From assembly GCA_000002435.2 (NCBI GenBank), contig CM018793.1: a DNA stretch of 64,000 nucleotides; one strand, written 5' to 3'. Below, in pieces: positions 1-40,800 of this stretch. The position numbers were made by a program, and so were the translations under genes. This DNA is from Giardia intestinalis. Taxonomy: Eukaryota. The notes under the pieces are model-generated. The model was given only the letters and a program-made list of their open reading frames with translations. It made no database searches and had not been told where the DNA came from. Every line of letters begins with the position of its first letter. Position 1 is the first letter of the stretch.

Positions 1-809
1 ACTTTACAAGGATGCAGAGCATTTATCTTATAGCGCTCGTTGATGCTCATACCCTCCACAGTCTCGCGGTCTAAAATACGGACTAAATCGTCACTGATAA
101 CTCCATCGGTGATGTCCTGAACCACGCCACAATATGACTGGATCATTTTAAATTGGCAAAGCTCGCGCGGGGCTAATATTCGCACAATATCCCCAGGAAC
201 CGGCACATCTGGCGCAATCCCCATAAGGGCGTGCAACTGTGTATCCAGTTGTTCGTCGATGTATAGAATAAACGGATTGTACTGAATGTAGCGTGGACCT
301 GGAAACATCGTCTGATAGTCATAAATAATGGAGCGTTCATTGCAGATAGGACACGTTCTTTCCCAGAGGGCAAATAGATAGTGAACACAATCAGCGCAAA
401 AGACGTGCATACAATGAGAAAAGCGTACTGGCTTACGCATTGGCTCCAAGCATATTCGACAAATATACTCTGATGGAAAGCTGACGTACTTAAAATGGGA
501 GCCATCGGTATATACCTTGAGGGCATAGGGATCGCAGGAGTCACAGACAGACGTCGAGAATTCGGAGTCGCAGGGAGCAGATTGACTGGTAATAGGGATG
601 GAAACATCGGGGTGAGTGGTCTCTGTAATAAAGGTCTGTGGGCTCAGTTTCTTAGCTGACCGCTTCCATAGGTTGGAAGCAGTAGTCAAGCTCGAGTTAG
701 ATTGAAAAAGTTGAGACAATCGTTGAGCTGCTGAGAGATCGTCTATGGTATAGCTACACATGACCTCTAAGTTCTGCACTTCTCCCTCTGCATACTCATC
801 AGAAAGCAT
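1..809 (-). CDS. RING-finger (C3HC4) protein, 5' part only; the gene continues past the window start
   Basis: Hand translation of the minus strand gives an open frame from ATG at 807-809 (in-frame TGA at 819-821 just upstream) to the window edge, with no stop. It reads MLSDEYAEGEVQNLEV...CRICLEPMRKPVRFSHCMHVFCADCVHYLFALWERTCPICNERS...RILAPRELCQFKMIQSYCGVVQDITDGV... The Cys/His spacing fits a C3HC4 RING. The ORF track missed it because it is unterminated in the window. The listed 173..607 ORF is a different, probably spurious frame. Confidence 0.5.
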   Translation of the reverse strand, partial: MLSDEYAEGEVQNLEVMCSYTIDDLSAAQRLSQLFQSNSSLTTASNLWKRSAKKLSPQTFITETTHPDVSIPITSQSAPCDSEFSTSVCDSCDPYALKVYTDGSHFKYVSFPSEYICRICLEPMRKPVRFSHCMHVFCADCVHYLFALWERTCPICNERSIIYDYQTMFPGPRYIQYNPFILYIDEQLDTQLHALMGIAPDVPVPGDIVRILAPRELCQFKMIQSYCGVVQDITDGVISDDLVRILDRETVEGMSINERYKINALHPCK

Positions 810-1030
810 ATGACCTTCTCAGCGATTCACAGGAAACACTTAGAGCTGTTTGTACAATTATTCAAAAAATACGTTTTCTACAGCTGTTGCTTGGTTGTCC
901 TTCAGCCTTGATTCTACTCTCGTTCAGCTGTATGTCACCCTACGTGCTGATTACCACGTCTGTATCGCAGTAAAGTATTTAAGAGTAAATTCGAGCACTT
1001 TACTTTTCAATATTTCACCATTTACCTGCT

Positions 1031-1745
1031 CTGCTGTCCGAGTAAATCTCCCTGCAACGCCACCGCCCTGGGCAGGGCTCCCGCTCGCCGTCCGGGGTCC
1101 AGCCCCAGCGTCCGAAGATCAGGCGCCCTCGATCCGGGCGGGAGAACTCCTATGCCCCAGCTCCCCCGGAAGCCGCTGCTCCTCACGTTACCTCTAGGGT
1201 TCCTCCCTTCCTCTGGCCCATCGGAGTCAACTATCGTCTGGCACTGGTGGGCACCTGCTATTCAGGGTCTTGCGTCTGTTGCGGCGATCTGGCCTCCACG
1301 TGGCCCGGGGCCCTGGTGCTCTGTGACGAGGATCACACGCCACGACCTCGAGTGTCTACCCCGTTCCTCGGGGTGCCTCTTCGTCTCCTCGTGGATTGCA
1401 CCATCAGTCCCGAGCATGATCGGAGGATGCGATCCCCGTACTCCTCTATCTTGGGGTTGTGGTACGCATTCGTGGATGCCGGCGGAGTACTCATATGCGT
1501 TGTGTTGGGGAGGAGGCCCGGCAGGTGTTCCAGACCACTACTCCTCGGTGTGGGCAGGATCAATCCACTTCTGTCAGCCAGACACTCCAAGGATCCCGAC
1601 TTGCCTGTCGAGGGATTCACATGGGTCACGTGTGGGTCCGTCTCGACAAGCGTGGCGAGTGATTGGTGCCATCACTGGCTTCAGGCCCTCCGTTGCCTTG
1701 AGGGGTCCTTCGAGACCGGCCAGGAAGGAGGCCTCCTGCTCCTCT
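1031..1745 (+). repeat. Dispersed ~0.7 kb GC-rich repeat, copy A (inverted relative to copies B and C)
   Basis: 1031-1390 is near-identical to the reverse complement of 9541-9922 and 40390-40773. 1390-1745 is a diverged (~70-80% by eye) match to the reverse complement of 9238-9540 and 40025-40390. No convincing coding frame, only overlapping GC-rich ORFs on both strands. Confidence 0.7.
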
Positions 1746-3375
1746 GTGCTCCTACACCCAATGGTGACCGTCGAACCATAGCACTTCCTAGGCCTGTCGC
1801 CTCTGTGACTATCCTCGCCGCGTCACTGTTGTCGGCATGGGCACTGAGTGGGGTATCTCCTCAGCTCCCGATGAGCAGGTTCTGTCCCCCGCAGCACAGA
1901 AGCATGCTCAGGGTCCCGAGGGACCGAGTCCAGGAGTGCAGCGTGGCGCAGCCGGAGGAAGGCCTCGACGCAGCTCCTTGGAACTGTCTTGTGGAGCAAA
2001 TCATGATCGTCCGCTGATCGTGGTTGTCCTGTCCCATTCTTGGAGAAGGGCCAGGCGGAACCGTACAGAGCACGCATCCCATCCTATGGATCGCGCCGAG
2101 GATCTCGCTGAAGGCCTGCACCTGGATGGACTCGCCAGCGCAGGTCCAGGCCGTCCTGATCCGGCCCTCTGGATAGCAAGGTGCTGGTCGTCGATGGCGC
2201 TGTTAGGGGGCAGCTCCCCTTCGAGGCGAGGCTGAGGATGCAGGCCGGGCAGCGGACCGGTGAATGCCACTCCTCCGGTTCCCCGCTGCTCCACTCAGTA
2301 GCACCCTGCATCCGGTGTCTGTTCTGCATGCGTCTGGACGGCCTCGCTGTGGAGAGTCTTCATGCAGGACAGGCACGTGCTCTTCCGCTCCTACTAGTTC
2401 AACGTTCACCCGGTGCCGCTCAGCGTAGGATGCTCCGTTTCAGTGGGCTCCTGAGGCCCGGGTCGGACCTGGAGCACCGGAAGCGCGCTCATGAGTGCTT
2501 CACACGCTCGCACGAGAGGCGCGGCCTTTCCGCCGTCTCATCAGGCGCCCACTGCACCCGCGGCCCTCGTTCTCCTGGCGTCGGAGCGCATCCCCGGCGA
2601 GGGGCGGCGCTTCGCAGTGCCCTGGACGAGCTGGGCGCTCTGGTGCTGTCGTCCGCTCAACCCCGCGGCCTCGGTCGTGCTACTGGGCGGCAGGAGTCGC
2701 ACCTTAGCCCCTTGGCTGGTCTGGAGGGCGTTCCGGTTGATGCCAGAGCTGGCGTGCACGGCCTGGCTCTTCTCCCCCGGACTCGGCCGACGTTCTGACC
2801 CGAATCCCGGACTCTGGGCTTGGGGCGGCGAACGGGCGGGGTCCGCCTGCCGCGGGGAGGACTTGCACGGGGTACGGATTGCTCGGCCGGCAGGTGGCAG
2901 ACCAGCTTCGATGAGGCGGAAGGTGAGCTGCGTGGCCCTGGAGTAGCGGGTGCCCACCGGGTGTGGGGAGCAGCTGGCCCAGGTTGACTAGAGGAACGCA
3001 CCGCGGGGCAACAACGGCCCCCTAGGGAGGAAGCACAAGGCTCTTCTCCAGAGGTGGGCGACCCCCGAGCTCGAGTTCTTGTCTCAGATGCCGGGTGGTG
3101 AACGAACAAGAGACCTGCCTTCATTTGTTGTCAACTACTATTACACCCTCATCTTGTTCAACGCATCAAAGCAAAAATAAGGTTGTCTGAGTAGCTCCCA
3201 CGAGCCACCAAGCGTCCTCAGAAGCAGGCAAGCCGTGGAGACACGTTCGCTCTATATGGTTAGTTCTGGTGGTGCGCTACTTAGACTGCTCTATAGGGGA
3301 GCGGCGGCACTTTTCCGTCTCTCGGTGGTCGGTGCTGTTGAGCACTGGTGCTTCACTCTACCGGCCTTAGAGCGT

Positions 3376-4836
3376 TTACTCTGAGAGGAGGGCGACTATC
3401 TCATGGCGTCTCCATAACTTAGCCATGTCAAGGGCAGTCCCCCCATTATAACCCTTCAAGTCCTTCTCTCTCATGAGGAGCCTGACACAGTCTGTGTGAT
3501 CGTTCTTCACAGCCCACATGAGGGCCGTCCACCCGTTGCTATCTTTCAGTCCCTTCTCTTTCTCCGCGAGCAGCTCCACGATCCCTGCGTGTCCGTATAC
3601 CGCCGCTCTCATCAGGGCAGTTCCCTCGTATATCTTCCAGTCACCTACAAGTGCGCATCCCTTCATCTTCATGCCCCCCTGGAGTGGTATGAGGGCCTTC
3701 ACAGCCTCCACGTCGTTTCTGTCGACAGCCCTCATGAGGTCGGTGGAGTCGTCCTCCTCTATTAGGTGCTTCTCTGGTTCTTCTGACTCCTCCATTTCGT
3801 CTGTCTTATCCGTCTCTGTTTTAATCTCCTGCATCTCTTCAAATAGCTTGGCAGCAACAGCATAGTGTCTCCTAATGGAGTCCACTTTTGCGGCGCTATT
3901 AGTGGGATCCTTTTCGAGAGTTACTGTTTTGTTGTTGGCCCTATTCAAGGCTTCTACAAAGGCTGCACGCACCTCCTTTAGCCTTGTGTCTTGGGCCTCT
4001 TGTTCATCAGCAGAGATGCCAGGCCTCCGAAGTAGACGGACGAGCCCCCTGGCAGTCGGCCTCTCGGCGGGATCGAGGACGAGCATCCTCTCAAGGACGT
4101 TCCTTGCGAGGTCGTCTGCGACACCGCTCAGGTTCGACCTCCATCCATCGACGAAGACATCCTCTGGTTCTCTGCCCCCCAGGAAGTCCGGCTTCCTCAG
4201 GGTGGCGAGCTCGTATGCGACGGCCCCAAGGCTCCAGACGTCGGATGCGGCGGTCGTGTCACCGCTGAGGAGTGTCTCGGGGGCCATGTACGCGGGGTCG
4301 CCAGCCTTCGCAGCTCCGCTCGATATGCCCTCGCAGAACCCGAAGTCTGCAAGAACAACACGCCGCCCGTCCCCAGCGAACATGACGTTGTCGGGCTCGA
4401 GGACAACGCTAGAGGGCAGGCCGTTGTGGGCACCTCTGCTGAGCCCGTGGAGGTGGGCAAGGGCGCCAGCCAGCTGCCCCAGAAGGGAGAGCATCAGCTC
4501 GCTGGGAATAGGTTCGTGAATGTCTTTGTAGTCGGTGATGAACTGCCGGAGGTCTCCACAGCAGCGGTCTGTGACAACAAGGATCGTGTTGCCATCTGTA
4601 AGCACCTGGTGGTATTTGAGAACGTCTGGGTGAAGGGTGCCTAGAAGAGCGGTCAGCCTACGCCGAATGGCATCTACACTGTGCTGATCCAGACCATCAA
4701 GCCGGATCTCTCTCACGGCGAGGTAGGGGCATCCCCTGAGAGAGTAGACGGCACCGTGGGCATCCTTGCTGAGCATGTTACCTAGGCGTCTATGCAACTT
4801 TTTGGGGCTGAACACGGGAACGCCACCAGCGCCCAT
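3376..4836 (-). CDS. NEK-family protein kinase-like protein with C-terminal ankyrin repeats; predicted pseudokinase
   Basis: Kinase-fold landmarks are present (LADFGF = DFG, YMAPE = APE, SDVWSLG). The C-terminus carries 3-4 ankyrin repeats (GTALMRAAVYGHAGIVELL, GWTALMWAVKNDHTDCVRLL, GGTALDMAKLWRRHEIVALL). The HRDLKPxN catalytic loop reads HNGLPSS, the VAIK lysine reads LAVREI, and the Gly-loop is degenerate, so it is probably inactive. The ORF-track start at 4998 is a TTG. The first in-frame ATG is at 4834-4836, with another at 4774-4776. AGTAAAC overlaps the TAA stop (3374-3380). Confidence 0.75.
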   Translation of the reverse strand: MGAGGVPVFSPKKLHRRLGNMLSKDAHGAVYSLRGCPYLAVREIRLDGLDQHSVDAIRRRLTALLGTLHPDVLKYHQVLTDGNTILVVTDRCCGDLRQFITDYKDIHEPIPSELMLSLLGQLAGALAHLHGLSRGAHNGLPSSVVLEPDNVMFAGDGRRVVLADFGFCEGISSGAAKAGDPAYMAPETLLSGDTTAASDVWSLGAVAYELATLRKPDFLGGREPEDVFVDGWRSNLSGVADDLARNVLERMLVLDPAERPTARGLVRLLRRPGISADEQEAQDTRLKEVRAAFVEALNRANNKTVTLEKDPTNSAAKVDSIRRHYAVAAKLFEEMQEIKTETDKTDEMEESEEPEKHLIEEDDSTDLMRAVDRNDVEAVKALIPLQGGMKMKGCALVGDWKIYEGTALMRAAVYGHAGIVELLAEKEKGLKDSNGWTALMWAVKNDHTDCVRLLMREKDLKGYNGGTALDMAKLWRRHEIVALLSE

Positions 4837-5216
4837 CGGCCCTGCAAAGCCGCTAGCTGCACTGTTACTAGCGTCTCTCAGGACACCCTCTGCGGTGGCT
4901 GGGAAGTGGGCGCGGCTTGCCCGTGGGGCCTCTGAGCGCACCTGCAGGCGGGGCCAGCGATACAGTGACAGCAATGTACAGGAGTGCACCCCGAACAATC
5001 ACTCCACAAGAGAGGTGCGATCTGAGTCCGGCCCTCACTGGTCCTGTTCCTACTGAAGTCAGGGAAAACTACACTATCAGCTGGCCTCCGGTGGGTGTGC
5101 TCCTATCTTGTCCTTCTCCAGTCCAACTGATCGAGAAGAGCAAGAGCGGCTGTCTCTCACTGCTCGCGGCAACACACCAGCCTGACGGAAGAGCAGTGGC
5201 ACGTGTGCTCCGGCTA

Positions 5217-8200
5217 ATGTTGATAGGATTTCTCCTAGTTTGTGTGGTAACACGGGCAGAATGCGCCCAAAACCTGAAGGACGCGGGCTGCGAGACCTGC
5301 ACAGAGGCGGGCCCCAGCCAGACGTGCCTCACCTGTAGCGGTGGCCAGAAGGTGCTCCTCGACGGGAAGAGCTGCGGGGCCAATTGCCCGCCGAACTCTG
5401 TGGCCAGCCCGAACGTCTGCGAGTGCGACCAGGGATTCAGCCTGAACAGCGGGAAGGACGGCTGCGTGGCGGCCTCTAACACGGAATGCGCCCAAAACCT
5501 GAAGGACGCGGGCTGCGAGACCTGCACAGAGGCGGGCCCCAGCCAGACGTGCCTCACCTGTAGCGGTGGCCAGAAGGTGCTCCTCGACGGGAAGAGCTGC
5601 GGGGCCAATTGCCCGCCGAACTCTGCGGCCAGCCCGAACGTCTGCGAGTGCGACCAGGGATTCAGCCTGAACAGCGGGAAGGACGGCTGCGTGGCGGCCT
5701 CTAACACGGAATGCGCCCAAAACCTGAAGGACGCGGGCTGCGAGACCTGCACAGAGGCGGGCCCCAGCCAGACGTGCCTCACCTGTAGCGGTGGCCAGAA
5801 GGTGCTCCTCGACGGGAAGAGCTGCGGGGCCAATTGCCCGCCGAACTCTGCGGCCAGCCCGAACGTCTGCGAGTGCGACCAGGGATTCAGCCTGAACAGC
5901 GGGAAGGACGGCTGCGTGGCGGCCTCTAACACGGAATGCGCCCAAAACCTGAAGGACGCGGGCTGCGAGACCTGCACAGAGGCGGGCCCCAGCCAGACGT
6001 GCCTCACCTGTAGCGGTGGCCAGAAGGTGCTCCTCGACGGGAAGAGCTGCGGGGCCAATTGCCCGCCGAACTCTGCGGCCAGCCCGAACGTCTGCGAGTG
6101 CGACCAGGGATTCAGCCTGAACAGCGGGAAGGACGGCTGCGTGGCGGCCTCTAACACGGAATGCGCCCAAAACCTGAAGGACGCGGGCTGCGAGACCTGC
6201 ACAGAGGCGGGCCCCAGCCAGACGTGCCTCACCTGTAGCGGTGGCCAGAAGGTGCTCCTCGACGGGAAGAGCTGCGGGGCCAATTGCCCGCCGAACTCTG
6301 CGGCCAGCCCGAACGTCTGCGAGTGCGACCAGGGATTCAGCCTGAACAGCGGGAAGGACGGCTGCGTGGCGGCCTCTAACACGGAATGCGCCCAAAACCT
6401 GAAGGACGCGGGCTGCGAGACCTGCACAGAGGCGGGCCCCAGCCAGACGTGCCTCACCTGTAGCGGTGGCCAGAAGGTGCTCCTCGACGGGAAGAGCTGC
6501 GGGGCCAATTGCCCGCCGAACTCTGCGGCCAGCCCGAACGTCTGCGAGTGCGACCAGGGATTCAGCCTGAACAGCGGGAAGGACGGCTGCGTGGCGGCCT
6601 CTAACACGGAATGCGCCCAAAACCTGAAGGACGCGGGCTGCGAGACCTGCACAGAGGCGGGCCCCAGCCAGACGTGCCTCACCTGTAGCGGTGGCCAGAA
6701 GGTGCTCCTCGACGGGAAGAGCTGCGGGGCCAATTGCCCGCCGAACTCTGCGGCCAGCCCGAACGTCTGCGAGTGCGACCAGGGATTCAGCCTGAACAGC
6801 GGGAAGGACGGCTGCGTGGCGGCCTCTAACACGGAATGCGCCCAAAACCTGAAGGACGCGGGCTGCGAGACCTGCACAGAGGCGGGCCCCAGCCAGACGT
6901 GCCTCACCTGTAGCGGTGGCCAGAAGGTGCTCCTCGACGGGAAGAGCTGCGGGGCCAATTGCCCGCCGAACTCTGCGGCCAGCCCGAACGTCTGCGAGTG
7001 CGACCAGGGATTCAGCCTGAACAGCGGGAAGGACGGCTGCGTGGCGGCCTCTAACACGGAATGCGCCCAAAACCTGAAGGACGCGGGCTGCGAGACCTGC
7101 ACAGAGGCGGGCCCCAGCCAGACGTGCCTCACCTGTAGCGGTGGCCAGAAGGTGCTCCTCGACGGGAAGAGCTGCGGGGCCAATTGCCCGCCGAACTCTG
7201 CGGCCAGCCCGAACGTCTGCGAGTGCGACCAGGGATTCAGCCTGAACAGCGGGAAGGACGGCTGCGTGGCGGCCTCTAACACGGAATGCGCCCAAAACCT
7301 GAAGGACGCGGGCTGCGAGACCTGCACAGAGGCGGGCCCCAGCCAGACGTGCCTCACCTGTAGCGGTGGCCAGAAGGTGCTCCTCGACGGGAAGAGCTGC
7401 GGGGCCAATTGCCCGCCGAACTCTGCGGCCAGCCCGAACGTCTGCGAGTGCGACCAGGGATTCAGCCTGAACAGCGGGAAGGACGGCTGCGTGGCGGCCT
7501 CTAACACGGAATGCGCCCAAAACCTGAAGGACGCGGGCTGCGAGACCTGCACAGAGGCGGGCCCCAGCCAGACGTGCCTCACCTGTAGCGGTGGCCAGAA
7601 GGTGCTCCTCGACGGGAAGAGCTGCGGGGCCAATTGCCCGCCGAACTCTGCGGCCAGCCCGAACGTCTGCGAGTGCGACCAGGGATTCAGCCTGAACAGC
7701 GGGAAGGACGGCTGCGTGGCGGCCTCTAACACGGAATGCGCCCAAAACCTGAAGGACGCGGGCTGCGAGACCTGCACAGAGGCGGGCCCCAGCCAGACGT
7801 GCCTCACCTGTAGCGGTGGCCAGAAGGTGCTCCTCGACGGGAAGAGCTGCGGGGCCAATTGCCCGCCGAACTCTGCGGCCAGCCCGAACGTCTGCGAGTG
7901 CGACCAGGGATACACGCTCAACGCCGGAAAGACCGCGTGCGAGAAGGCCTCTAACACACAGTGTAATACTCCCAACTGCAAGATCTGTGATAACCCCAAA
8001 ACAGACAACGAAATCTGCACTGAATGTAATGATAACAATTACCTCACCCCGACAAAGCAGTGCACGCAGAGCTGCGGAGCAATAGGAAGCTACTACAACG
8101 GAGACAAAGTGTGCGAGCCTTGTGATTCTAGCTGTGCTGCGTGCACCACAACGGGACCAGCGAAGTGCACGCTGTGTCCTCCCGGGAAGAGGCTCCAGTA

Positions 8201-8906
8201 CACCAATGATGATCCTAGTCAAGGTGGATCCTGCGTAGATGAGTGCAAGCCCCAGAGTGGAGCTAGCGGATGCGAGACCTGCGGAGCCACCATCGGAGGG
8301 ACAAAGTATTGCTCGAAGTGCAGCACATCCACGGAGGTCCCCGTCAACGGAGTCTGTACAGCAGACAATGCCCGCGCGCCCGTATGCTCGAAAAAGGACA
8401 ATCAGGGAGGGTGCACTACGTGTGCCAGTGGGTACTTCCTCCAAGACGGCGGTTGCTATAAGACTGACAGACAGCCCGGTGAGCAGATATGCACACTAGC
8501 TGATAGCAATGGTGGATGTCAGACGTGCGCCAATAGTCTTCAGCCTAATAATGGAGCATGCCCTTCGTGTCACTCGACATGCAAGACATGTCGTGATGCT
8601 AATTCTGCAAATACTTGTACAACGTGTGCAACTGGGTACTACATGGTTGGATTAAATGCTGGGCCATGCACTTCGTGTGACAGCAACAGTGGAAGTGTCA
8701 AGGGAGTTGCTGGCTGCATGAGCTGCGCTCCTCCATCTAGCAATACTGGCTCCGTCCTCTGCTATCTCATAAAGGATACCGGTAGCACGAACAAGAGCGG
8801 CCTTTCTACCGGCGCCATCGCGGGGATCTCCGTGGCTGTCATCGTCGTTGTGGGGGGCCTTGTGGGCTTCCTCTGCTGGTGGTTCCTGTGTAGGGGGAAG
8901 GCGTGA
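5217..8906 (+). CDS. Variant-specific surface protein (VSP) with 12 tandem 75-aa cysteine-rich modules
   Basis: ATG at 5217 gives signal peptide MLIGFLLVCVVTRA. The ORF-track start 4917 is TTG with a non-secretory leader. The protein has many CxxC motifs and a GGCY motif (FLQDGGCYKTD). The C-terminal TM helix is AIAGISVAVIVVVGGLVGFLCWWFL, followed by the invariant Giardia VSP tail CRGKA and the stop. AGTAAAC poly(A) signal lies at 8914-8920. Confidence 0.9.
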   Translation: MLIGFLLVCVVTRAECAQNLKDAGCETCTEAGPSQTCLTCSGGQKVLLDGKSCGANCPPNSVASPNVCECDQGFSLNSGKDGCVAASNTECAQNLKDAGCETCTEAGPSQTCLTCSGGQKVLLDGKSCGANCPPNSAASPNVCECDQGFSLNSGKDGCVAASNTECAQNLKDAGCETCTEAGPSQTCLTCSGGQKVLLDGKSCGANCPPNSAASPNVCECDQGFSLNSGKDGCVAASNTECAQNLKDAGCETCTEAGPSQTCLTCSGGQKVLLDGKSCGANCPPNSAASPNVCECDQGFSLNSGKDGCVAASNTECAQNLKDAGCETCTEAGPSQTCLTCSGGQKVLLDGKSCGANCPPNSAASPNVCECDQGFSLNSGKDGCVAASNTECAQNLKDAGCETCTEAGPSQTCLTCSGGQKVLLDGKSCGANCPPNSAASPNVCECDQGFSLNSGKDGCVAASNTECAQNLKDAGCETCTEAGPSQTCLTCSGGQKVLLDGKSCGANCPPNSAASPNVCECDQGFSLNSGKDGCVAASNTECAQNLKDAGCETCTEAGPSQTCLTCSGGQKVLLDGKSCGANCPPNSAASPNVCECDQGFSLNSGKDGCVAASNTECAQNLKDAGCETCTEAGPSQTCLTCSGGQKVLLDGKSCGANCPPNSAASPNVCECDQGFSLNSGKDGCVAASNTECAQNLKDAGCETCTEAGPSQTCLTCSGGQKVLLDGKSCGANCPPNSAASPNVCECDQGFSLNSGKDGCVAASNTECAQNLKDAGCETCTEAGPSQTCLTCSGGQKVLLDGKSCGANCPPNSAASPNVCECDQGFSLNSGKDGCVAASNTECAQNLKDAGCETCTEAGPSQTCLTCSGGQKVLLDGKSCGANCPPNSAASPNVCECDQGYTLNAGKTACEKASNTQCNTPNCKICDNPKTDNEICTECNDNNYLTPTKQCTQSCGAIGSYYNGDKVCEPCDSSCAACTTTGPAKCTLCPPGKRLQYTNDDPSQGGSCVDECKPQSGASGCETCGATIGGTKYCSKCSTSTEVPVNGVCTADNARAPVCSKKDNQGGCTTCASGYFLQDGGCYKTDRQPGEQICTLADSNGGCQTCANSLQPNNGACPSCHSTCKTCRDANSANTCTTCATGYYMVGLNAGPCTSCDSNSGSVKGVAGCMSCAPPSSNTGSVLCYLIKDTGSTNKSGLSTGAIAGISVAVIVVVGGLVGFLCWWFLCRGKA
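5259..7910 (+). repeat. Tandem array: ~11.8 copies of a 225-bp unit (75 aa, ECAQNLKDAGCETCTEAGPSQTCLTCSGGQKVLLDGKSCGANCPPNS(A/V)ASPNVCECDQGFSLNSGKDGCVAASNT) inside the VSP
   Basis: Unit starts (gaatgcgcccaaaacc) at 5259, 5484, 5709 ... 7734, with exact 225-bp period. By eye the copies are identical except one T/C (Val/Ala) difference in copy 1. The array decays into unique sequence at 7911. Confidence 0.9.
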
Positions 8907-8913
8907 CTTAGGT

Positions 8914-8920
8914 AGTAAAC
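8914..8920 (+). promoter_or_regulatory. Putative Giardia poly(A) signal AGTAAAC 8 nt after the VSP stop
   Basis: Matches the AGTPuAAPy consensus described for Giardia 3' ends. Position is 8-14 nt downstream of TGA (8904-8906). Confidence 0.5.
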
Positions 8921-9237
8921 GCGTCATTGTGTGTGGCTTATTACGCTGTGCTACTGGGGCTATCTGAGGATCGCCCAGAGGTCGTGCGGGTAATCATCGC
9001 TCCTTCCTGGCCAGTTCAGAGACGAGGGTTGGCTGTGGATGATATAATAGGGATCTCCCTTCACTTGTATACCAGGAGTCTTTTGCGTCCCTCAGTTGTT
9101 CCGCAGAGGTGTGCTCAGTTCGAGTGTGCACGTCGGTCTGTCTAGGATTCAACTTACTTGCCCATCTGCGTCGTCCACCATTGGTGCCACTTCTTGGTCT
9201 ACCGCTCTGATGGCGGAGGGTCCCAGCAGTTAATGAT

Positions 9238-9922
9238 CCTGGACCGACGCCTCGACAGACCGAAGCATCACCCCCAAGTGTGTTGTGCAGATGGACCAGC
9301 CCACACGTCACTGAGCCAGACACACTGCACAGAATGAGCGTCGACATGATCTCGTACTGGCTGACGGACCATCCACAAGAGCGCACTGCGATCATGAGCA
9401 GAGGGATGGGCCTCTCCCCTGATACCACCGCATGGGAGTACTCCATCGGCATCCACGAACGCGTACTATGACTCCAGGATAGAGGCGCACGGGGAGCGCA
9501 CCCCCGACAGCAGGGTCGATGGTCCACGTCATGGGGAGACGAAGAGGCACCCCGAGGAACGGGGTAGACACTCGAGGTCGTGGCGTGTGATCCTCGTCAC
9601 AGAGCACCAGGGCCCGGGCCACGTGGAGACCAGATCGCCGCAACAGACGCAAGACCCTGAATAGCAGGTGCCCACCAGTGCCAGACGATAGTTGACTCCG
9701 ATGGGCCAGAGGAAGGGAGGAACCCTAGAGGTAACGTGAGGAGCAGCGGCTTCCGGGGGAGCTGGGGCATAGGAGTTCTCCCGCCCGGATCGAGGGCGCC
9801 TGATCTTCGGACGCTGGGGCTGGACCCCGGACGGCGAGCGGGAGCCCTGCCCAGGGCGGTGGCGTTGCAGGGAGATTTACTCGGACAGCAGCTGCAAACT
9901 AACCTTGGTAAACAGAGTAAAT
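9238..9922 (-). repeat. Dispersed ~0.7 kb GC-rich repeat, copy B
   Basis: 9238-9922 is ~95-99% identical to 40087-40773, apart from one ~40-bp divergent patch near 9571-9610 where B instead matches copy A. It is the reverse complement of 1031-1745. It starts 331 bp after the VSP stop and ends 7 bp before the stop codon of the minus-strand gene 9930..12521. Confidence 0.75.
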
Positions 9923-9929
9923 TATTTGC

Positions 9930-12521
9930 TTATATAAATATTCCCTCATACATTCCTGCATCCCGGCCTGTGTGTCCTGCCCCCTTAACAGATGCCCTGT
10001 ATGGATCTCTGAGAGCGTCATTTCGATCCCTCATAAGCTCCCATTCTTTTTGTGTTCTGTGCAGATCCGCTTTCCGCTTTGCAGTCTTCGCAGCTTCATC
10101 TGCGGTGATTCTCTTTTGCTGCTCCAGGTCAGCTTGTTGCTTCCTCTTACATTCAGATCGTTCCTCCGCTTGTCTATGTTTAGTTAACTGTATGTTTTCC
10201 AATCGTTTTTGCTTGACCTCGCTTGCTATTTGCGCTTTCTCTGGCCCTGGATATGCTGCCTTTGTGTAGAACATATCCGTTGTTTTTGTGTAGGTATTGG
10301 TTAAGATATTCTCAGTAAATATCTTGACAGTACTTTTCTCTTTGGCCCGCGCGTTTAGTTTTTGCCGTAAAGCATTTGCGGCAGCTCGTGCAACCTCCCC
10401 TTGCTCTATCTGCTCGCGACTTTGCTCCTCACGTGTCTTAATACGCTTACCTAACTCTTTCTCATAGCTATCAATTATTTCCTTGGTAGACTCCTGAACG
10501 GCATCTATATACTTTTGATAGATGGAGAAATCAACACGTACATCTGCGGTTAGCTTCATTTGCTCTCTATCGGCGCGAATAGCTTCTCTTACCCGTGCTA
10601 CCTGCTCACATTTTCGTTGCAGCTCAGCCTGTTCATTCTCTTTCGCTTCCAAAATAGCTTTACGACGATCCTCTAGAATCTGAAGATTAACCTCTTTCAT
10701 GAGAAGGAGCCGCTGCCGTAGCTCTGTAAGAGACATTTCATCTAATAAGCCGTGACCTGCCGTAGTAGAGGAGTCATACTTTTCAAGTAATTTCTTTTCG
10801 CGCTCTGCTCCAACTATTTCCAGCATAGCCTTAATTTGCTTCACTAGCTCTATCCTTTCGATGCTCTCAGCAAGCTTTAAGTCTGCCATATACTCCACGT
10901 TTTGAAGATGCTCTTGTCTTCGCTCGTCCGCGAGCCTCTGCTTCTCTCTCGCTAAATCTTTTTTAGCTTCATCCACCTTTAATTGTAACATGTCGTGCTG
11001 TTCCTTAGCATGCCGCTGAGCCTCTTGGAGTCGTTTATCATCTCTTTCAAAGTACTCAAGGAGCTGCTGAAAATGCTCTTTATTTTCCTCACTTACCTTA
11101 GCTGTTTTCAACTTTAGCGCCACTTCCCGCGCATGTTTTGCATCTTCGAAAGCTAGCTTCGCATCACGCTTATGAAGCTCTATTTCGGCAAGGCGCTTCT
11201 GTTTGTCGAGCTCAAGCATGGCTGCTCGCCACATATCAAACTCCGAACTATCCCGCAAGCCAGCCATATACATATTAAGCTCTTGGGCCTCCACATCCAA
11301 CGCCTTTTCTATAATTGCGTTAGCTCGCAAAATAGTCGCTTTTGTCTCTCTTGGCGGTGGAACCTGGACATATCTCTTGCGTGCCATGGCTTGCTTTCGT
11401 TCAATAGATGCAGCAGCCTCCCGGGCGGCCTCCTCCTGCTTCTTATCGTCCAGTTTCTTTTTGGCCTCGGCGTGCCGACGCTTATCCTCGCTGTACCATT
11501 CAGCTGTGCGCTTATCTGGTTTAGTCAGTTGAGGGAGGAATTGTTTGCGCTCCTCCTCTGCTTTCTTTAGCACCTCGTTCATTGGCTTATTAAGCATAGC
11601 AAGTGGGGCTTTCTTTGCCGTATAGCAGTATTCAGCCTGCACCTCTTCTGGAGTAATATCTGTAATTTTCTTTGATAAAGAAACACTGGTCACAGGAGCA
11701 CTAAACTTTGTGCCAAGTGCTGGTGCTATCGGAGGTGGTGTTCGCCCTTTTTGCCAGGCGCTTTTAGCTTCTGACTTTTGGGATAGCATGGCTATTAGAT
11801 CTGTCGCTTCCTGGTAACAATTATGAACAATCGCATGTGTCAAAGGTCCACGAACATATGTCTCATCAAAGTGTGACTCTAAGATACGTCTTAGATGAAT
11901 AGATAGCCGCGCGTCTTGAACTACGGGCTGTATTGCCTGTTGCATTAATGAATCCTCGGTAGCTTTGTACCTATCGTTTTCCGAGCTACTTTCGTCACCA
12001 GAGCCCTTTTCCGCGATATCTACCGATCCCTTAGTTATTTTGGAAGGTGAGGCGTCGCCCCAAACCAGTCGCAAAAATGGCAGAATAACAGAGGCTTGCT
12101 GAGACACCAGGATGGCTCGTAGCTTGGAAAACGGTTGGCGCAAAAGCTCAAAAATGGTATAGTAAAACAATACATAATAGAGGTTCTTAGCAGATGGAAG
12201 GAGCTGGGGATTTTGCGCGTAAAGTAGGTCAGTACAGCTTTTAAGAACAGGCCTGTTGCTAGCAACCCCGCAACACACATCACTAATGAATTGTCGCTGC
12301 TGTATAGTCATTTGGTCAGTCATATTCTTCAGTGGAGCAGAGGTAGAGACGCCCACAGCAGAGCAGTCGATCCTCACACTGCCTGTTTCATCATCAGTTT
12401 GAGGAATGTACACGGTGTAGTTTTGGAGTACTCCTTCAACGTACTGATAGATATCCTCTCTTGCAGGGCTGTAGTTCGTTAGGCAGCCGCATATTATATC
12501 GACAATAGAGCGAATTTTCAT
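9930..12521 (-). CDS. Large coiled-coil protein (hypothetical; charged K/E/R/Q-rich heptad-like central region)
   Basis: 863-aa ORF with ATG at 12519-12521, preceded on its strand by AT-rich caaaaaactaaaaATG. Residues ~300-800 are dominated by KEELRQ-rich stretches typical of coiled coils (e.g. LQEAQRHAKEQHDMLQLKVDEAKKDLAREKQRLADERRQEHLQN). No recognisable catalytic motifs. Confidence 0.6.
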   Translation of the reverse strand: MKIRSIVDIICGCLTNYSPAREDIYQYVEGVLQNYTVYIPQTDDETGSVRIDCSAVGVSTSAPLKNMTDQMTIQQRQFISDVCCGVASNRPVLKSCTDLLYAQNPQLLPSAKNLYYVLFYYTIFELLRQPFSKLRAILVSQQASVILPFLRLVWGDASPSKITKGSVDIAEKGSGDESSSENDRYKATEDSLMQQAIQPVVQDARLSIHLRRILESHFDETYVRGPLTHAIVHNCYQEATDLIAMLSQKSEAKSAWQKGRTPPPIAPALGTKFSAPVTSVSLSKKITDITPEEVQAEYCYTAKKAPLAMLNKPMNEVLKKAEEERKQFLPQLTKPDKRTAEWYSEDKRRHAEAKKKLDDKKQEEAAREAAASIERKQAMARKRYVQVPPPRETKATILRANAIIEKALDVEAQELNMYMAGLRDSSEFDMWRAAMLELDKQKRLAEIELHKRDAKLAFEDAKHAREVALKLKTAKVSEENKEHFQQLLEYFERDDKRLQEAQRHAKEQHDMLQLKVDEAKKDLAREKQRLADERRQEHLQNVEYMADLKLAESIERIELVKQIKAMLEIVGAEREKKLLEKYDSSTTAGHGLLDEMSLTELRQRLLLMKEVNLQILEDRRKAILEAKENEQAELQRKCEQVARVREAIRADREQMKLTADVRVDFSIYQKYIDAVQESTKEIIDSYEKELGKRIKTREEQSREQIEQGEVARAAANALRQKLNARAKEKSTVKIFTENILTNTYTKTTDMFYTKAAYPGPEKAQIASEVKQKRLENIQLTKHRQAEERSECKRKQQADLEQQKRITADEAAKTAKRKADLHRTQKEWELMRDRNDALRDPYRASVKGAGHTGRDAGMYEGIFI

Positions 12522-16011: not shown

Positions 16012-16134
16012 AAATCTTGAAATAAGTGGATAGGATGAGTTACAAAGGACTGCAAAGGACTAAAAACACTGGTAAACACAACAGAAGCCAGGGTTTTGGA
16101 GCGCGGCCCACAAGTCCCTGATTTGGATTTAAAA
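16012..16134. promoter_or_regulatory. Divergent promoter region between the ankyrin gene (-) and TOR (+)
   Basis: 123-bp spacer between two divergently oriented ATGs. The AT-rich gatttggatttaaaaATG lies immediately upstream of TOR. Confidence 0.4.
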
Positions 16135-19100
16135 ATGAGCACAGACGCAATTACTTCTAGCCGCTTCTATCCCTATCTAGCTGACCTGAAATCTATCGAT
16201 CCAAACATCTACACACGCGCAGCAATGGCGATTCGCATGCAAGTCGAAAAGGACAGTAGACAAATGCTTGCCGATCCTCGTACTCTTTTTATATCTGATC
16301 TTATGAGTTTTATAAGGAATCTTGCCACTTCCTCAAGCTACGAAGACAGACTCGCAAGTCTCTGGGTCATGAGGGAGCTCATCCAATCCCGTCCTACCAT
16401 TAGCATGATTCCTTTGACGTACTTTGAAGAAATCGCCCTTGAACTTGTCAACGACCCTTCTGAAGTTATTATTCTTACTAATTGCGTTTTCATTGGTCGA
16501 TTGATCAACGCTGAAGGCCACGGAATAGACTTTGTTCCAAAGTTGTTTGTAATAAGCATTGATAAAATTAAGAGCGGAGACTCAACAAAGGTCTACACTG
16601 GCATGCTGCTATTCAATGACCTAACTGAGGTGGAGACCAGTTTTGCCATAGATATCTCCAGCGAAGAGTTTCTTGAACCAATCTGGCATGTGATTACGGA
16701 AACGCGAAACAGCAATATCAAGGAAGTGGGCTTCAAGGCTATTAATAAATTCATATCCTATCAAAAGAAAGCTACAAAGCATGACGTTCTGGTACGTCTC
16801 ATAACAATGATTAGAGCTGCGCTAGATGGCAAGAACATTTCTGAGCAGCTCATTGCCCTGCATCTGCTCCTGAACATGCTTAATTTGTCAGTCAAAGACA
16901 AGTCGATAGCAGACTATTTCCAGGAAAACTACAGCAGTTTTTTTTCTCTCGTCGCCAATATCTTCCGTTCTAAGACATCCGAGGGGCGTATGCTTGTTGC
17001 ATCCATTATCTCGCTTTTTGCTAAATTAGACCCAGAGAGATTTTGCACAACTGAACGGCTACAGATGATACTGACATTTTACAAGAAAATGATACCCACA
17101 CAACAGGAGCTGTTTATTCCTCTAGGAGAGTTCGTCATAGTCATAGGGGAAAAGCACGTTAAACCAATTTTCAATGACTTAATCAATCTCATCACCTCAT
17201 CTTTTAAGTCACAGAATTTCACAAAGGCAGGGAGTATACTACCACCGGAGCCTCTCAAGTGTATCCAATACATTACAAAAGGGGCGCCGAACCTCGTCCA
17301 GAAACATGTCACTTCGATTTTGGAATGCATCTTCTCTGTGGGACTCTGTGAATCTCTCACCTCTGCTCTTCAAGACCTTTCTGCAAATTTACATAACCGG
17401 CTACTGGATATCCAAGGCCTACTTCTTTACTTGGTCGCCAATGAGCTGGGTGGAATCAACTTGTTTCTTTCCAATGCTTATGGAGTAATTGATGGGTCAG
17501 AAGATTACTATCTTGTGCTTACGGAGAATCAATCTCAAGCAGTTGCTGATGGACATGACTCAGGCGTCCTTGACTCCCAGACTTCCATTATCCCCGGGAC
17601 ACGACCCTCAACTACCCAAGCCACCACTCACGTGGAAGATACGCGCACCAATGAAGATGCGATTGAGCTGGCTCACGACTTATCTATTACTGGTCTCAAA
17701 GAGGAATCGGAGCAATGTGACTTTAAAAACTCTCTTTCTGTCTATCAAACTGTTACTACATCAGCCGGTATAACGGCGTTATATAAGCTTTCAGATCGCA
17801 TTGCAACAGCATTAGGAACCAGCAAGCTTCGTCCCCGTCGCCACTCCACAAGTGAAGCCATCCTTTTAGCATTCCAAGCGCTATACGATTTTGACTTTAG
17901 TTTATTTGATCTGACAATCTTTGCAGCTGATTACCTGACGCGCTATCTCCGGAATGACAGTAGCACACTTCGCATCAAAGCAGCTCAAACTATTCTAAAG
18001 CTAATGTCTGAGGACCACTTTGAAAAGATACGGCGTGGAAAGCACTCGCAGTACAAAAGTATGACTATAAAAGCGGAGGATTGTCACTCTTGGGCTGGGT
18101 CCACTCTTGGAGAGGCTCCGACGCCATCCGGTGGAGCCACAATTATCCCACCTGCTGTTGTTTCCAACCAATCATTCGCTACCACTATTAGCCCCAAGAC
18201 TAGACATATCAGAACACACTCTAGTTCTCACCTTGATGACATGAGCTCCACAAGCTTCTGTATTAACCAGGACTGCATTTTGTCCCAAGACATCCTTAAG
18301 TCGAGCGATCTAGGCACTGATGGCTTTTTTAATTCGGGTCCATACCGACACATGCTTATATCTGACACGCTGCGGCAAATCATTATAATAGGAACCACAG
18401 ACATCGATCCGGAGGTCCGCATGTCTATAATTCAGGCGTTAACCACTACAAATAGGTATGATATATATCTTGTGCACGAGAGCAGTCTCAGGACCCTTTT
18501 TATTGCTTTGTATGATGATAATATTGAGATACGCATCCTTGCCGTGAAGTTGATAGGCCGTCTCTGTTCGTTGAATCCTGCGCTTGTGACTCCCGAAATC
18601 AGGCATCTTATTCTCGTTCTATTGACAGAACTCCGTCTGACCACAGAAAATAATAAGAGGGCTACATCCAATGAGCTGATCGTCAAGATATTTAAGTTTT
18701 GCGGGTCCATTGTTCTCCCTTACGTGCCCATGGTATATTCAGCTGTCATGGGGCTCATTTCAAAAGACTGTGACGACGAGTACTTGCTGATTACATCTCT
18801 TACAACTCTTGCTGAGCTTTTCACTATCGGCTCCACTAGTATGGTACATTGTCTAGCAGAGGTCATTCCTCTTCTGATTACTTGCATTAAAGAAGAGACG
18901 TCAAAGACTCTGAGACTGACCACCACCCGATGCTTTGTTCGGATTGTTGAAGCAACATCATTCGTCGTCTTCCCATGGTTTATTTACCATGATCTCTTTA
19001 CCATAGTGTTTGGTATCCTTAAAAATGATACATCTCAGGAAATACGTCTTGAAGCAGCCAAGCTTATAACGACCATCGGCGCTATCGATCCCATATTCTA

Positions 19101-22100
19101 TCAGAATGGGAAGCCGGATCTATCTGCGCTTGTTCCTCCCACCAATCTGACCTGTAAGTGCCAGTCCACCGACGTCTTTTCCTTAGACTATATCATGGAC
19201 GAGTCTAACATCTGGGTATGCCACAAGGGTGAAGGAGGCGCAGCACAAGAAGCGTCTATCAAATCGCATGGAAAGGCGGTTGTCAGTCCAATAACGGGCC
19301 ACGTCGTGGAGAACGTCTATATTATGAAACTGGATAGCGGATCCGAGGTTTCTGCTAATGTCTCTGATTTTGAGTTGACTCTAAATGTGATTATGTCTAC
19401 ACTTTACTCTATCCTGTCTGAGAGCACCTTAGACATGTACCACTATGACGCCGTTGTGGTCTTTCGAACAATTATCCAGACAGAATGCACAGCGATAAGC
19501 CTCCCAATGGTGCCTAAGATAATATCTTTAATTCTTGAAAACATACAAAATTGTAAGGTATTCATGCAGGAAACAATGCTTCGCGAGCTCATTCTTATAA
19601 TATCAAGCATCGGGCACCACGCACACTCTTATGTTTCTGATATTTTTGACATAATAGAAGTGCTGTGGGCGAACCAGCAGCTCATAGAGCTTATTCTTGC
19701 GCTCCTCGAAGAGGTGAGTATTGTATTGGATTTGTCTTTAGGAAACTATGGCTCGCAATTTTTCCTAAAGTTTGTAGGTCTTTTCACTGTGCTAAAGTCA
19801 TCCCAGGAGATAAGTGACTCTGCAAAGAAGCTTCTTATAAGGGCTTGCCGGTCTGTTGTGGCCCTCTCAAGCCTATTCTCAAACCACATACATTTAATTG
19901 TGGACCTTCTTTGCTCTGGGATTCGTAAGCAGAAGCTGGGTAAAGAGCTCCGATTCGCTCTTCTGGATACTCTCTCTCGGCTTACTATTTGCACTAACCT
20001 TTCCCGCTTTGGAGCAAGCATAATCCATCCTATCCTCGAAGTCATCATGGAAGCAGATCCTTGTACGTCTGTAGAGCATAATAAGAATGCAAACCCCGAG
20101 AAGGGTCTGAATCCTATGAACATAGTTTCTTATAAAGCATTTGAGGTCCTGCACTTTATTTGCGCTCAGTTTGGCGTTTCTGTGACTCTTTATATTCCTG
20201 TCATTACCGAGTGTCTTCTGAAGGTTGGCTTTACTTCTGGTCTTTTGGACTCCATCTTTTCCTTACTACTACGACGCGAAGAAGTTGATCCAGTTACTTT
20301 TTATCGCCTGATTTGTGAGTGGAAGAAAAAGCAAGCTAAAAAATTCTCTGAGTATACTTCCTTGGCTTCCTTGTTGGCCATGTATGAGACTCCAGTTACA
20401 CAAGATACACTTCTTTATATGGAGAGCATCTCAAACAAGGTACCTGGCGACGATAAAGATGCTATGATTCTGGTCGTTAAAGATATCAACTTCGATGATA
20501 TAGGCAGTGTGATTAATTATCTTCACACATCATCTACATGGTTTGGGGACGATATGCGCCCGCTCCCGGCAGGCGCGATAGGCGTGCATAGCCTTTCTAT
20601 TCAGGAAAACGACATGCTTAATAAGCACGTCACCATTCCTCAGCAGATATGGCGCGCAGACACATGCAAGAAGAACGAAGAGTGGCGTCATTGGCTTTCA
20701 AATCTTAGCCTGACCCTTCTCCAATGTTCTCCTCTTAAATGTCTGCGGGCATGCCATAAGCTGGCCACTTCCTATCCTCGTGTAGCACGTGATTTATTTA
20801 ATTACTCCTTCCTTGCATGCCTTTCTGAGACATACCCCAGCAATAATGAGCACAGGAATTATATCGTTGAGTCTATCCGGTCTGTATTTCTATCACAGAA
20901 CTGTCCGCTAGATGTTCTACAAATTTTGCTGGATTTGGCAGAGTTCTGGGAGAACAGGTCCCGTGAGTTCAGCACCACGTTCAGCCACAATTTCTTGGGA
21001 GAGGTAGCCGAGCGATGCCATGCGTATACGCGCTCTCTGCGCTACAAGGAAACAGAGTATGCACAACACCCGATAGAGGCAGTTGGTCGTCTTATTGCAA
21101 TTAATTATAGTTTAGGGTATGAGGAGACGGCCATAGGGACTCTGAGGGTTGAGTGCAAGCGGCTTAACTTCATCTCTACAAACCTAATCTATGACATATT
21201 GCTACGTTGCCTATATACGGGGTTGGATGACGTTTTCACAATGATGCAAAGGGAAGGAGGCCTTGAGCCTGGGGCAGCTGTTAATTGTTCAGCAGAGTCA
21301 ACCTTGGAGCGTATTATCAACAAGGTTGTTTCGAAAATTGTCACAAAGGCTTTAACAGAAGCGAAGAAAATTTCCAATCTTAACCAGTCCATTCCCCAGC
21401 AACTTGTGTCTTATGGCTCGATAGGTGGCATATTTGTTGAGGGACGGCCCGTGATGTCTGGGCCAGAGGGCAGCGTTCTTCAGGTAGACTATAATGAAAT
21501 AGGTATTTATTTAAGCGCGCTGGCGCGAAGGATGCTAAAAAGCAAGCTTACCTATCAATACCCCACCTTTCTGATGTATGAGGAAAACCTCTTTCAATCA
21601 GTGCTCAAGACTCTTCGCTACAAGGCACAGGGACACATGCAAGATCTCTACGGCCCCAGTCCTAAGTGGTTTGAAAATGTGTGTCTTTGGGACAAGGCTC
21701 TTTCTGGGTACAATCGTCAGATAGATCAGCTAAAGCTAAGCCTCAAGTCTAATACATCTGAGGCACGAACTCTACTTCCGATGCTCGTTAACCTCACGAA
21801 GGATAAAATTCGTTGCTTGTTTGCGCTTGCTGATTACTCGGCCGTCCAGGAAGAAGCCGATCAGTTGCTAAATTACCTGTCCTCTGAATCTAAAGAAGAA
21901 GCAGGGCTCACAACAGTAAAACATACACTCATCAAAGGATTTCAAGCAGATATTGCAACATATGCTGCATGGAGTCTTTTGGAGCAAGACCAAGAGGACG
22001 TGGAAATCTGGCTGCGAGTCCTTCCAGAAGACAATATCGATGGAACAATTATACGTGCCACATCGTATATAAAGGCGAACAAGATGTTGGAGGCCCATAA

Positions 22101-40024: not shown

Positions 40025-40773
40025 AACGAGTGTGCGGGCGGACGGGCGTTCCTGGTGCCTCAGACGACACCCTTCAGAGAGGTGGCCCTGGACCGACGCC
40101 TCGACAGACCGAAGCATCACCCCCAAGTGTGTTGTGCAGATGGACCAGCCCACACGTCACTGAGCCAGACACACTGCACAGAATGAGCGTCGACATGATC
40201 TCGTACTGGCTGACGGACCATCCACAAGAGCGCACTGCGATCATGAGCAGAGGGATGGGCCTCTCCCCTGATACCACCGCATGGGAGTACTCCATCGGCA
40301 TCCACGAACGCGTACTATGACTCCAGGATAGAGGCGCACGGGGAGCGCACCCCCGACAGCAGGGTCGATGGTCCACGTCATGGGGAGACGAAGAGGCACC
40401 CCGAGGAACGGGGTAGACACCCGGGGTCATAGCGTATCCCATCTTCGTCATGGAGCACCAGGGCCCGGGCCACGTGGAGACCAGATCGCCGCAACAGACG
40501 CAAGACCCTGAATAGCAGGTGCCCACCAGTGCCAGACGATAGTTGACTCCGATGGGCCAGAGGAAGGGAGGAACCCTAGAGGTAACGTGAGGAGCAGCGG
40601 CTTCCGGGGGAGCTGGGGCATAGGAGTTCTCCCGCCCGGATCGAGGGCGCCTGATCTTCGGACGCTGGGGCTGGACCCCGGACGGCGAGCGGGAGCCCTG
40701 CCCAGGGCGGTGGCGTTGCAGGGAGATTTACTCGGACAGCAGCTGCAAACTAACCTTGGTAAACAGAGTAAAT
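40025..40773 (-). repeat. Dispersed ~0.7 kb GC-rich repeat, copy C
   Basis: 40087-40773 is near-identical to 9238-9922. 40025-40086 additionally shows ~70% similarity to the reverse complement of 1690-1745, a region copy B lacks. It ends 28 bp upstream of the dynein ATG at 40801 and begins ~320 bp after the HCMP stop. Confidence 0.75.
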
Positions 40774-40800
40774 GAAGCAACTTTAAGAAAAACTCCATTC

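Follow-up and report, generated by a model that had tools for sequence, protein, structure and literature searches.

A solitary variant-specific surface protein gene of Giardia intestinalis WB-C6 with a probably homogenised array of twelve 225-bp units

The window analysed here, a stretch of 64,000 nucleotides of Giardia intestinalis (contig CM018793.1), contains one intact, solitary gene that encodes a VSP (variant-specific surface protein) from the assemblage A1 strain WB-C6, in which twelve tandem units of 225 bp form an array that is very probably homogenised. The gene is located on a 4,018,654-bp contig, of the chromosome-5 class, of the PacBio assembly (Xu et al., 2020; PMC7000408). It can be read without interruption from its start codon to a stop codon (Table 1), and the encoded protein is identical to KAE8304911.1 / XP_037902180.1 / A0A644F8A3 of G. 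intestinalis ATCC 50803 / WB clone C6. The product matches PF03302 (Giardia VSP) with an E-value of 5.2e-95 and 319 bits, at a cutoff of 31.4, and its C-terminal part has 562 VSP homologues at E ≤ 1e-3. An earlier note on this DNA, made from the sequence alone, had already called the gene a VSP, and the PF03302 match, the CRGKA end of the protein and the identity to the RefSeq/GenBank VSP of WB-C6 bear this out.

Other features of the gene are also those of the VSP family. A cysteine content of about 11-13% and numerous CXXC motifs characterise VSP ectodomains. The product contains 161 cysteines (13.1%) and 38 CXXC motifs; among vsp genes, the density of such motifs ranges from 3.6 to 18.6 per kb (Adam et al., 2010; PMC2996952). 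The start codon is embedded in TAATGTT, which the same study gives, beside CAATGTT, as a putative vsp initiator (Adam et al., 2010; PMC2996952). The leader, MLIGFLLVCVVTRA, is homologous to the paralogue leader MLVGFLLVCATVLAK and would presumably be cleaved off. In the account of the assembly given by Xu et al. (2020; PMC7000408), it is the N-terminal signal peptide that divides VSPs from pseudo-VSPs, and the public record for XP_037902180.1 carries the name "VSP", not pseudo-VSP. In the cysteine-rich, non-repeated ectodomain that follows the array, the columns that are invariant in an alignment of 87 VSPs (alignment A1) are mostly cysteines. The protein ends with a membrane anchor (residues 1199-1224), for which a helix is predicted at residues 440-462 of the structural model described below, and with the cytoplasmic tail CRGKA (residues 1225-1229), next to which stands the stop codon; the columns of anchor and tail are nearly invariant in alignment A1. 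The stop codon is immediately followed by CTTAGGTAGTAAAC, presumably the extended VSP polyadenylation motif. Thus, the domain match, the richness in cysteines and CXXC motifs, the anchor with CRGKA, and the initiator together with CTTAGGTAGTAAAC after the stop codon all place the gene in the VSP family.

The array directly follows the leader and accounts for 900 of the 1229 residues (73% of the protein). Tandem Repeats Finder reported it at 5259-7957, with a period of 225, 12.0 copies, 99% matches, 0 indels and a score of 5305, as the sole tandem array in the whole 64-kb window. When the units are compared in register, copies 2-11 (5484-7733) are mutually identical at 225 of 225 positions, whilst copy 1 (5259-5483) has a single mismatch, i.e., T for C at 5401, which converts the Ala codon GCG into the Val codon GTG. 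Copy 12 (7734-7958) has 15 mismatches, every one of them at unit positions 179-225 (7912-7958 in the window). That ten 225-bp copies should be identical by chance is not credible. Each unit encodes 75 residues, including ten cysteines and two CXXC motifs; SCGANCPPNSAASPNVCECDQGFSLNSGK is an example of a unit-specific peptide. The GC content of the array is 67%, as compared to 48% for the window.

In the earlier note, twelve near-identical copies of a 75-aa, ten-cysteine module were placed at 5259-7910; they were considered to make up two thirds of the ectodomain and to be identical apart from one T/C in copy 1. The count, confirmed by Tandem Repeats Finder and the copy-wise comparison, and the description of the module both stand, and so does the single difference where copies 1-11 are concerned. 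However, the array reaches 7958 and includes the diverged tail of copy 12, and its share is nearer three quarters. The end coordinate of 7910 was evidently chosen because the perfect stretch (5259-7911; 2653 bp) stops at 7911.

Just in front of the array, the leader-coding sequence (5241-5275) reads ...GGTAACACGGGCA and then, across the border of the array, GAATGC; it contains AACACGG, which is also the sequence found at the junction between units. Between this AACACGG and the start of the first unit, three additional bases (GCA) intervene. Judged by its sequence, it looks like the remnant of a partial preceding unit.

A homologue of the gene is present in isolate DH (assemblage A2). In the available 454 assembly of this isolate (AHGT01), the gene is split in the array. 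A 5' fragment with 1.2 units (P0002; L001) is located at the end of contig AHGT01000058, and a 3' part with 2.2 units (P0004, i.e., ESU37980.1; L002) at the start of contig AHGT01000018. The three complete DH units, one in the 5' fragment and two in the 3' part, are identical to one another at 225 of 225 positions, but each of them matches the WB unit at 200 positions (88.9% at the nucleotide level and 84% at the amino-acid level), with 25 fixed nucleotide differences, 12 amino-acid changes, and a dS of 0.24 and a dN of 0.09 (ratio 0.37). The DH unit, which is also 75 residues long, is the closest known unit, and the leader is of the type found in the WB gene. In contrast to the latter, the DH homologue has nine extra residues (KHNEKGSNT) between leader and array, and its last unit is not diverged.

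Related arrays are found in the WB genome as well. An exhaustive HMMER search with two repeat units as the query yielded, at E ≤ 1e-3, no more than 18 representative proteins. Those strong matches of which the sequence was read are Giardia VSPs, with one exception, an unrelated repetitive protein with a weaker score (E = 5.6e-15). A word-index search with two units returned the DH fragment P0002 only and missed the gene itself, and it was the HMMER search that found the paralogous arrays. These are P0141 (XP_001708995.2; 1937 aa; 21 units of 76 aa; contig of chromosome-1 size), P0123 (XP_037901961.1; 1029 aa; 13 units of 74 aa; contig of chromosome-4 size), and P0143 (XP_001709860.2; 598 aa; 7 units of 76 aa; contig of chromosome-3 size). 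In each of the three genes, the units are identical to each other. In three further paralogues, P0008, P0006 and P0007, the module is present as a single copy. In its sequence (GYTLNAGKTACEKASNT, followed by QCNTPNCK), the diverged end of copy 12 is similar to the junction of these single-copy paralogues, a likeness which, as far as the sequences go, is consistent with growth of the array from one ancestral module.

When each gene is represented in an alignment by a single unit, the ten cysteines all fall into register, and the identity across genes is 35-84% with DH included (35-68% for the WB paralogous arrays), which makes the unit a member of a subfamily of 74-76-aa, ten-cysteine modules (CRP65-like; TR219-228 group). 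The WB unit is 68, 58 and 38% identical to the units of P0141, P0123 and P0143, respectively. The present gene and these three paralogues have in common the type of leader, the start of the array just past the leader, and the VSP C-terminus. However, the present gene has its own unit sequence of 75 aa (225 bp) in 12 copies, with units of 74-76 aa in the other three, and the 285-aa non-repeated ectodomain is kept in the present gene and in P0141, whereas in P0123 and P0143 the repeats reach almost to the anchor. P0141 clusters at at least 90% identity with AAB06228.1, a 'cysteine-rich protein' of 645 aa; in view of the 65-kDa size and of an entry 'CRP65, TR228, chr 1' listed by Adam et al. (2010), P0141/AAB06228.1 is probably CRP65.

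Uniformity within each array, 11% fixed divergence between the arrays, and decay at the edge constitute the classical signature of interior turnover and, at the level of sequence, indicate that such turnover has shaped the gene. The mechanism would be out-of-register recombination between 225-bp units, by unequal sister-chromatid or inter-allelic exchange or by gene conversion, or else replication slippage between them. Either process would keep the array uniform and alter its length. Interior copies would become homogenised in this way, whilst the edge copies, having one neighbour only, would escape homogenisation and gather differences. The earlier note had proposed recent expansion or concerted evolution, and this proposal is supported by the DH units, which are identical among themselves and shifted as a set relative to WB, and by the restriction of divergence to the edges of the WB array. 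Continuing turnover of the array is more likely than independent recent amplifications, given that the pattern recurs in all related genes and isolates and that documented cases of allelic length variants exist among other VSP arrays.

Several points weigh against the picture of an intact, solitary VSP gene with a homogenised array. The same pattern of identity and divergence would result equally well if diverged single units had been amplified recently and independently. Furthermore, it is possible that the DH gene is not the orthologue but a paralogue, as synteny with the window is missing in the flanks of the DH gene and the adjoining gene for a NEK-type kinase is only 90.8% identical to that of WB. 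The gene matches no entry of the 2010 vsp catalogue by length and cysteine count. Finally, the structural matches of the predicted protein are weak (Foldseek E-values of at least 2.9e-3 and a low TM-score), and a sequence search yielded no solved VSP structure.

The array could, alternatively, have arisen from a single unit in one recent burst of amplification, by slippage or a rolling-type duplication, and have remained static afterwards. If very recent, such a burst would explain the ten identical interior copies without homogenisation, and single-copy modules do exist in P0008, P0006 and P0007. Nevertheless, this scenario is improbable. In the DH homologue, too, the array is built of a uniform unit peculiar to that gene, and the same applies to at least three other WB genes, so that independent bursts for each gene and isolate would have to be assumed, which is less economical than continuous turnover. 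Moreover, copy number is documented to vary between alleles of vspA6 and vspC5 (Adam et al., 2010; PMC2996952), and recurrent unequal exchange would be expected to leave divergence at the edges only.

An even smaller chance has to be given to an artefact of assembly or polishing, in which case the units of the real locus would be fewer, more numerous or diverged, and both the number of twelve and the identity of the units would stem from the consensus. Assemblies typically err in repeat arrays, and the repeat numbers derived from a Sanger assembly were only approximate (Adam et al., 2010; PMC2996952). Older records of two of the paralogues are shorter than the current ones, with 451 vs. 598 aa under the same accession (XP_001709860) in the case of P0143, and 645 aa in AAB06228.1, a member of the same 90% cluster, vs. 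1937 aa in XP_001708995.2 in the case of P0141, which suggests that too few copies were counted in the older records. Also, the DH 454 assembly breaks precisely within the array. These points have to be set against the identity of the protein to that of the PacBio reference, which, according to its description, was obtained with PacBio RS II at 200x coverage with a read N50 of 12.7 kb, and in which Illumina base correction is described as having made limited changes, e.g., 85 indels in a total of 38 affected genes (Xu et al., 2020; PMC7000408). An array of 2.7 kb with unique flanks is within the reach of such reads and would be spanned by most of them; hence, the concern raised earlier that short-read assemblies collapse or inflate perfect arrays is not applicable here. 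In addition, the difference in copy 1 and the diverged tail of copy 12 were retained through the consensus, and identical units are also found in the independent DH data. In an exact-protein look-up among the contigs on record, no further assembly carrying the gene was found. The accession XP_037902180.1 belongs to the new RefSeq series (XP_0379...), and some of the paralogues kept their old number with version.2. Together with the lack of a fitting entry in the 2010 catalogue, the new-series number suggests that the gene was first assembled complete in 2020.

The array may also be a fast-changing contingency locus, with unit numbers that differ among the four genome copies of WB-C6 and among subclones. 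This extension, for which the alleles of vspA6 and vspC5 offer a precedent, is rather less likely to hold than to fail. If it were true, shifts in length on the time-scales of culture or infection would alter the length of the stalk and the valency of epitopes, independently of VSP switching.

In the literature, the gene falls in a class that is already known: it is an annotated member of a well-described group, and larger homologous arrays exist in the same genome. For WB, the catalogue of Adam et al. (2010; PMC2996952) comprises 30 vsp genes that bear repeats, with a unit length of 105-516 bp, among them a group with units of 219-228 bp. In this class, an in-frame array of near-identical units begins 66-99 bp past the ATG or near that distance (Adam et al., 2010; PMC2996952). 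Consistently, the twelve 225-bp units of the present gene, ten of which are identical, are in frame and start 42 bp past the ATG. Three catalogued genes, vsp21/AS7 (GL50803_137717; 3 copies), vsp95 (2 copies) and vsp165 (6 copies), have a unit of 225 bp (TR225), and one of them is located on chromosome 5; other examples of repeat-bearing VSPs are vspC5 (105 bp; about 25 copies) and CRP136 (120 bp; 22 copies) (Adam et al., 2010; PMC2996952). The earlier note had regarded a VSP with a 225-bp unit as a distinct member. This is correct insofar as the unit has a sequence of its own, unlike that of CRP170/VSPA6, but it is not a new kind, considering the three TR225 genes and the homologous arrays.

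The present gene itself could not be located in the 2010 catalogue. A comparison of length and of the numbers of cysteines and CXXC motifs found no entry that fits 329+75N aa, 41+10N Cys and 14+2N CXXC for any copy number N. The TR225 gene on chromosome 5, vsp21/AS7 (646 aa; 83 Cys), was considered as a candidate, but it fits no copy number. The nearest entry is vsp236 (TR219), with 555 aa, 71 Cys and 20 CXXC, where 554, 71 and 20, respectively, would be expected at N=3; it could conceivably be a collapsed version of the present gene. A full-text literature search with the UniProt accession A0A644F8A3 found no mention, and the supplement of the Be-2/WB comparison has no entry matching the gene.

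The relationship between the WB and DH genes is not one of clean orthology. The non-repeated C-terminal part of the WB gene is 85% identical to DH P0003 and 77% identical to DH P0004; P0003 itself carries an unrelated 76-aa repeat. In a comparison of positions 7476-8911 of the window with L002 and L003, an unmatched gap relative to L002 was observed at 8249-8435. The closer likeness of the C-terminal part to P0003 and this gap suggest, at the sequence level, that the WB gene is a mosaic, i.e., recombinant, VSP. Mosaic recombination among vsp genes has been described before (Adam et al., 2010; PMC2996952).

The surroundings of the two genes differ as well. In DH, the VSP gene is located 411 bp upstream of the NEK gene on the same strand. 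Thus, relative to NEK, the VSP gene is inverted between WB, where the two are head to head (3342-4998 and 4907-8911), and DH (L002 1-3315). The difference may reflect an inversion of the VSP gene relative to NEK, or else the two are paralogous loci. Simple orthology and synteny between WB and DH was considered and rejected, as only the NEK gene and the VSP cassette are common to both, in a different relative orientation. Another possibility, weaker than that of a contingency locus, is that VSP genes move in the manner of cassettes, taking along their conserved 5' flank of 310 bp, and that the inversion reflects this.

This 5' flank is 90% identical to that of the DH homologue, and indels of 1-2 nt break every reading frame. 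An open reading frame (ORF) upstream of, and in frame with, the ATG (4917-5216) was considered as coding and rejected on account of these indels in the WB-DH alignment. The translation of the flank ('MYRSAPRTITPQERC...') recurs in over-extended annotations of the paralogues P0127, P0006 and P0007. Giardia promoters are generally short, and the conserved non-coding flank seems long relative to them.

Two long ORFs on the antisense strand overlap the array. The earlier note had reported them, with 989 and 1069 aa, and had regarded them as artefacts; they are present as described, and the evidence favors the same interpretation. No stop codon interrupts the unit in the coding frame or in two of the three frames of the antisense strand, and 88% of its third codon positions are G or C; the repetition of such a unit twelve times accounts for both ORFs. 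Antisense VSP transcripts have been reported in Giardia. Still, the chance that the ORFs are real genes, or that the locus chiefly makes a functional antisense product, as their sheer length and names such as AS7 in the table of Adam et al. (2010) might suggest, is negligible: the length follows mechanically from the array, both ORFs terminate shortly beyond it, neither matches any Pfam family at threshold, no Rfam family was found across 3000-10500, and every VSP hallmark is carried by the sense frame.

In the whole 64-kb window, no second VSP-like sequence was found; hence, the gene belongs neither to an inverted pair nor to a linear array of VSP genes. Downstream of it follow unannotatable ORFs, an ankyrin protein, a TOR kinase, an EGF-like protein and PCNA (Table 1). 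The segments 1-3340 and 8921-9929 contain only short ORFs or ORFs without Pfam matches (1152-2798), and this sparseness fits the gene-poor surroundings of VSP genes noted in the account of Xu et al. (2020; PMC7000408).

Table 1. Positions of the VSP gene, its parts and its neighbours in the 64,000-nucleotide window.
Feature	Position	Strand	Basis
Complete VSP coding sequence, 1229 aa and TGA stop, no interruption	5217..8906	+	translation, PF03302, exact database match
Initiator TAATGTT, overlapping the ATG at 5217	5215-5221	+	sequence
Leader (putative signal) peptide MLIGFLLVCVVTRA, hydrophobic, 14 residues; array begins at next codon	5217..5258	+	homology to paralogue leaders
Tandem array, 12 x 225 bp, in frame	5259..7958	+	Tandem Repeats Finder and copy-wise mismatch counts
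Sole substitution of copy 1 (T for C, giving Val in place of Ala)	5401..5401	+	copy-wise comparison
Diverged tail of copy 12, reading GYTLNAGKTACEKASNT, 15 substitutions	7912..7958	+	copy comparison, paralogue comparison
Non-repeated cysteine-rich ectodomain, 285 residues	7959..8810	+	motifs, homology
GGCY motif	8448-8459	+	inside non-repeated ectodomain
CPSCHSTCKTC motif	8559-8591	+	inside non-repeated ectodomain
Membrane anchor and cytoplasmic CRGKA tail	8811..8903	+	motif position, predicted helix
CTTAGGTAGTAAAC, immediately 3' of stop codon; AGTAAA at 8914-8919	8907..8920	+	sequence
Conserved non-coding 5' flank of VSP subfamily, about 310 bp	4907..5216	+	DH and paralogue comparison
NEK-type kinase and ankyrin gene, head to head with VSP gene	3376..4998	-	Pkinase and Ank matches
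Two overlapping antisense ORFs, 5069-8038 (989 aa) and 5235-8444 (1069 aa)	5069..8444	-	ORF listing
TOR kinase, 3240 aa (FAT, FRB, PI3/4-kinase, FATC domains)	16096-25818	+	
EGF-like cysteine-rich protein	38031-39701	+	
5587-aa ORF	40756-57519	+	
PCNA	57576-58475	-	

The gene bears out that VSP repeat arrays which were cut or broken in older assemblies are resolved in the long-read reference. The gene also offers a small, clean case of array homogenisation, being uniform within itself, divergent by 11% at the nucleotide level between isolates, and decayed only at the edge. Twelve identical units give rise to redundant tryptic peptides and multi-mapping reads and, therefore, expression is easily mis-estimated in proteomic or RNA-seq surveys of antigenic variation. 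The repeat number is a candidate marker to tell clones apart. Beyond such bookkeeping, the importance of the gene is little.

A possible function of the array at the cell surface was considered with the help of an AlphaFold2 (AF2) model that comprises the two final units and the C-terminal part and was built on alignment A1. The model is confident, with a mean pLDDT of 88, and in both units it has a short helix and beta-hairpins in the same arrangement. According to the model, the module would fold as a short helix with disulphide-braced beta-hairpins of the furin-like/EGF-like type, and the array would make up an extended modular stalk, by which the ectodomain is lengthened and the same epitopes are shown twelve times on the surface of the trophozoite. 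The gene would provide one of roughly 130 alternative coats in antigenic variation.

The best Foldseek matches of the model in the PDB are Fu1-Fu2 of R-spondin, the cysteine-rich domains of EGFR, and the EGF-like protein Pfs25. The best of these has an E-value of 2.9e-3, a probability of 0.98 and a TM-score of 0.36 on the target, and is weak, the low TM-score being due to the elongated shape of the model; a search of the PDB by sequence found no match to any solved structure. Like the predicted module, the furin-like repeats of R-spondin and EGFR/ErbB and the EGF-like Pfs25 consist of small, disulphide-braced beta-hairpin units that are stacked as a rod. This likeness is weak, with 19-27% identity over about 130 columns, and amounts to resemblance, not family membership.

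The same architecture is found in VSPA6 (CRP170; vsp67; GL50803_221693), the classic example of a VSP with repeats, which likewise consists of a leader, a long in-frame array of identical units that makes up about three quarters of the protein, and, after the array, unique sequence (about 1.3 kb) and a conserved 3' end. The repeats themselves are different, as the earlier note had rightly pointed out in contrasting the gene with the 195-bp, 65-aa unit of CRP170/VSPA6. The VSPA6 unit of 195-201 bp (65 aa) has 8 Cys and the GAAPYLKK epitope and is present in about 23-26 copies, whereas the present unit of 225 bp (75 aa) has 10 Cys, is devoid of GAAPYLKK, and shows at most 24% identity to the VSPA6 unit in a forced alignment. 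Thus, it does not belong to the VSPA6/CRP170 repeat family. Immunodominance is documented for the repeat of VSPA6 (Adam et al., 2010; PMC2996952), and the epitope of the cytotoxic monoclonal antibody 6E7 is located within it (PMC7332775). By analogy, the array of the present gene may have a role as a multivalent epitope, comparable to that of the repeat of VSPA6.

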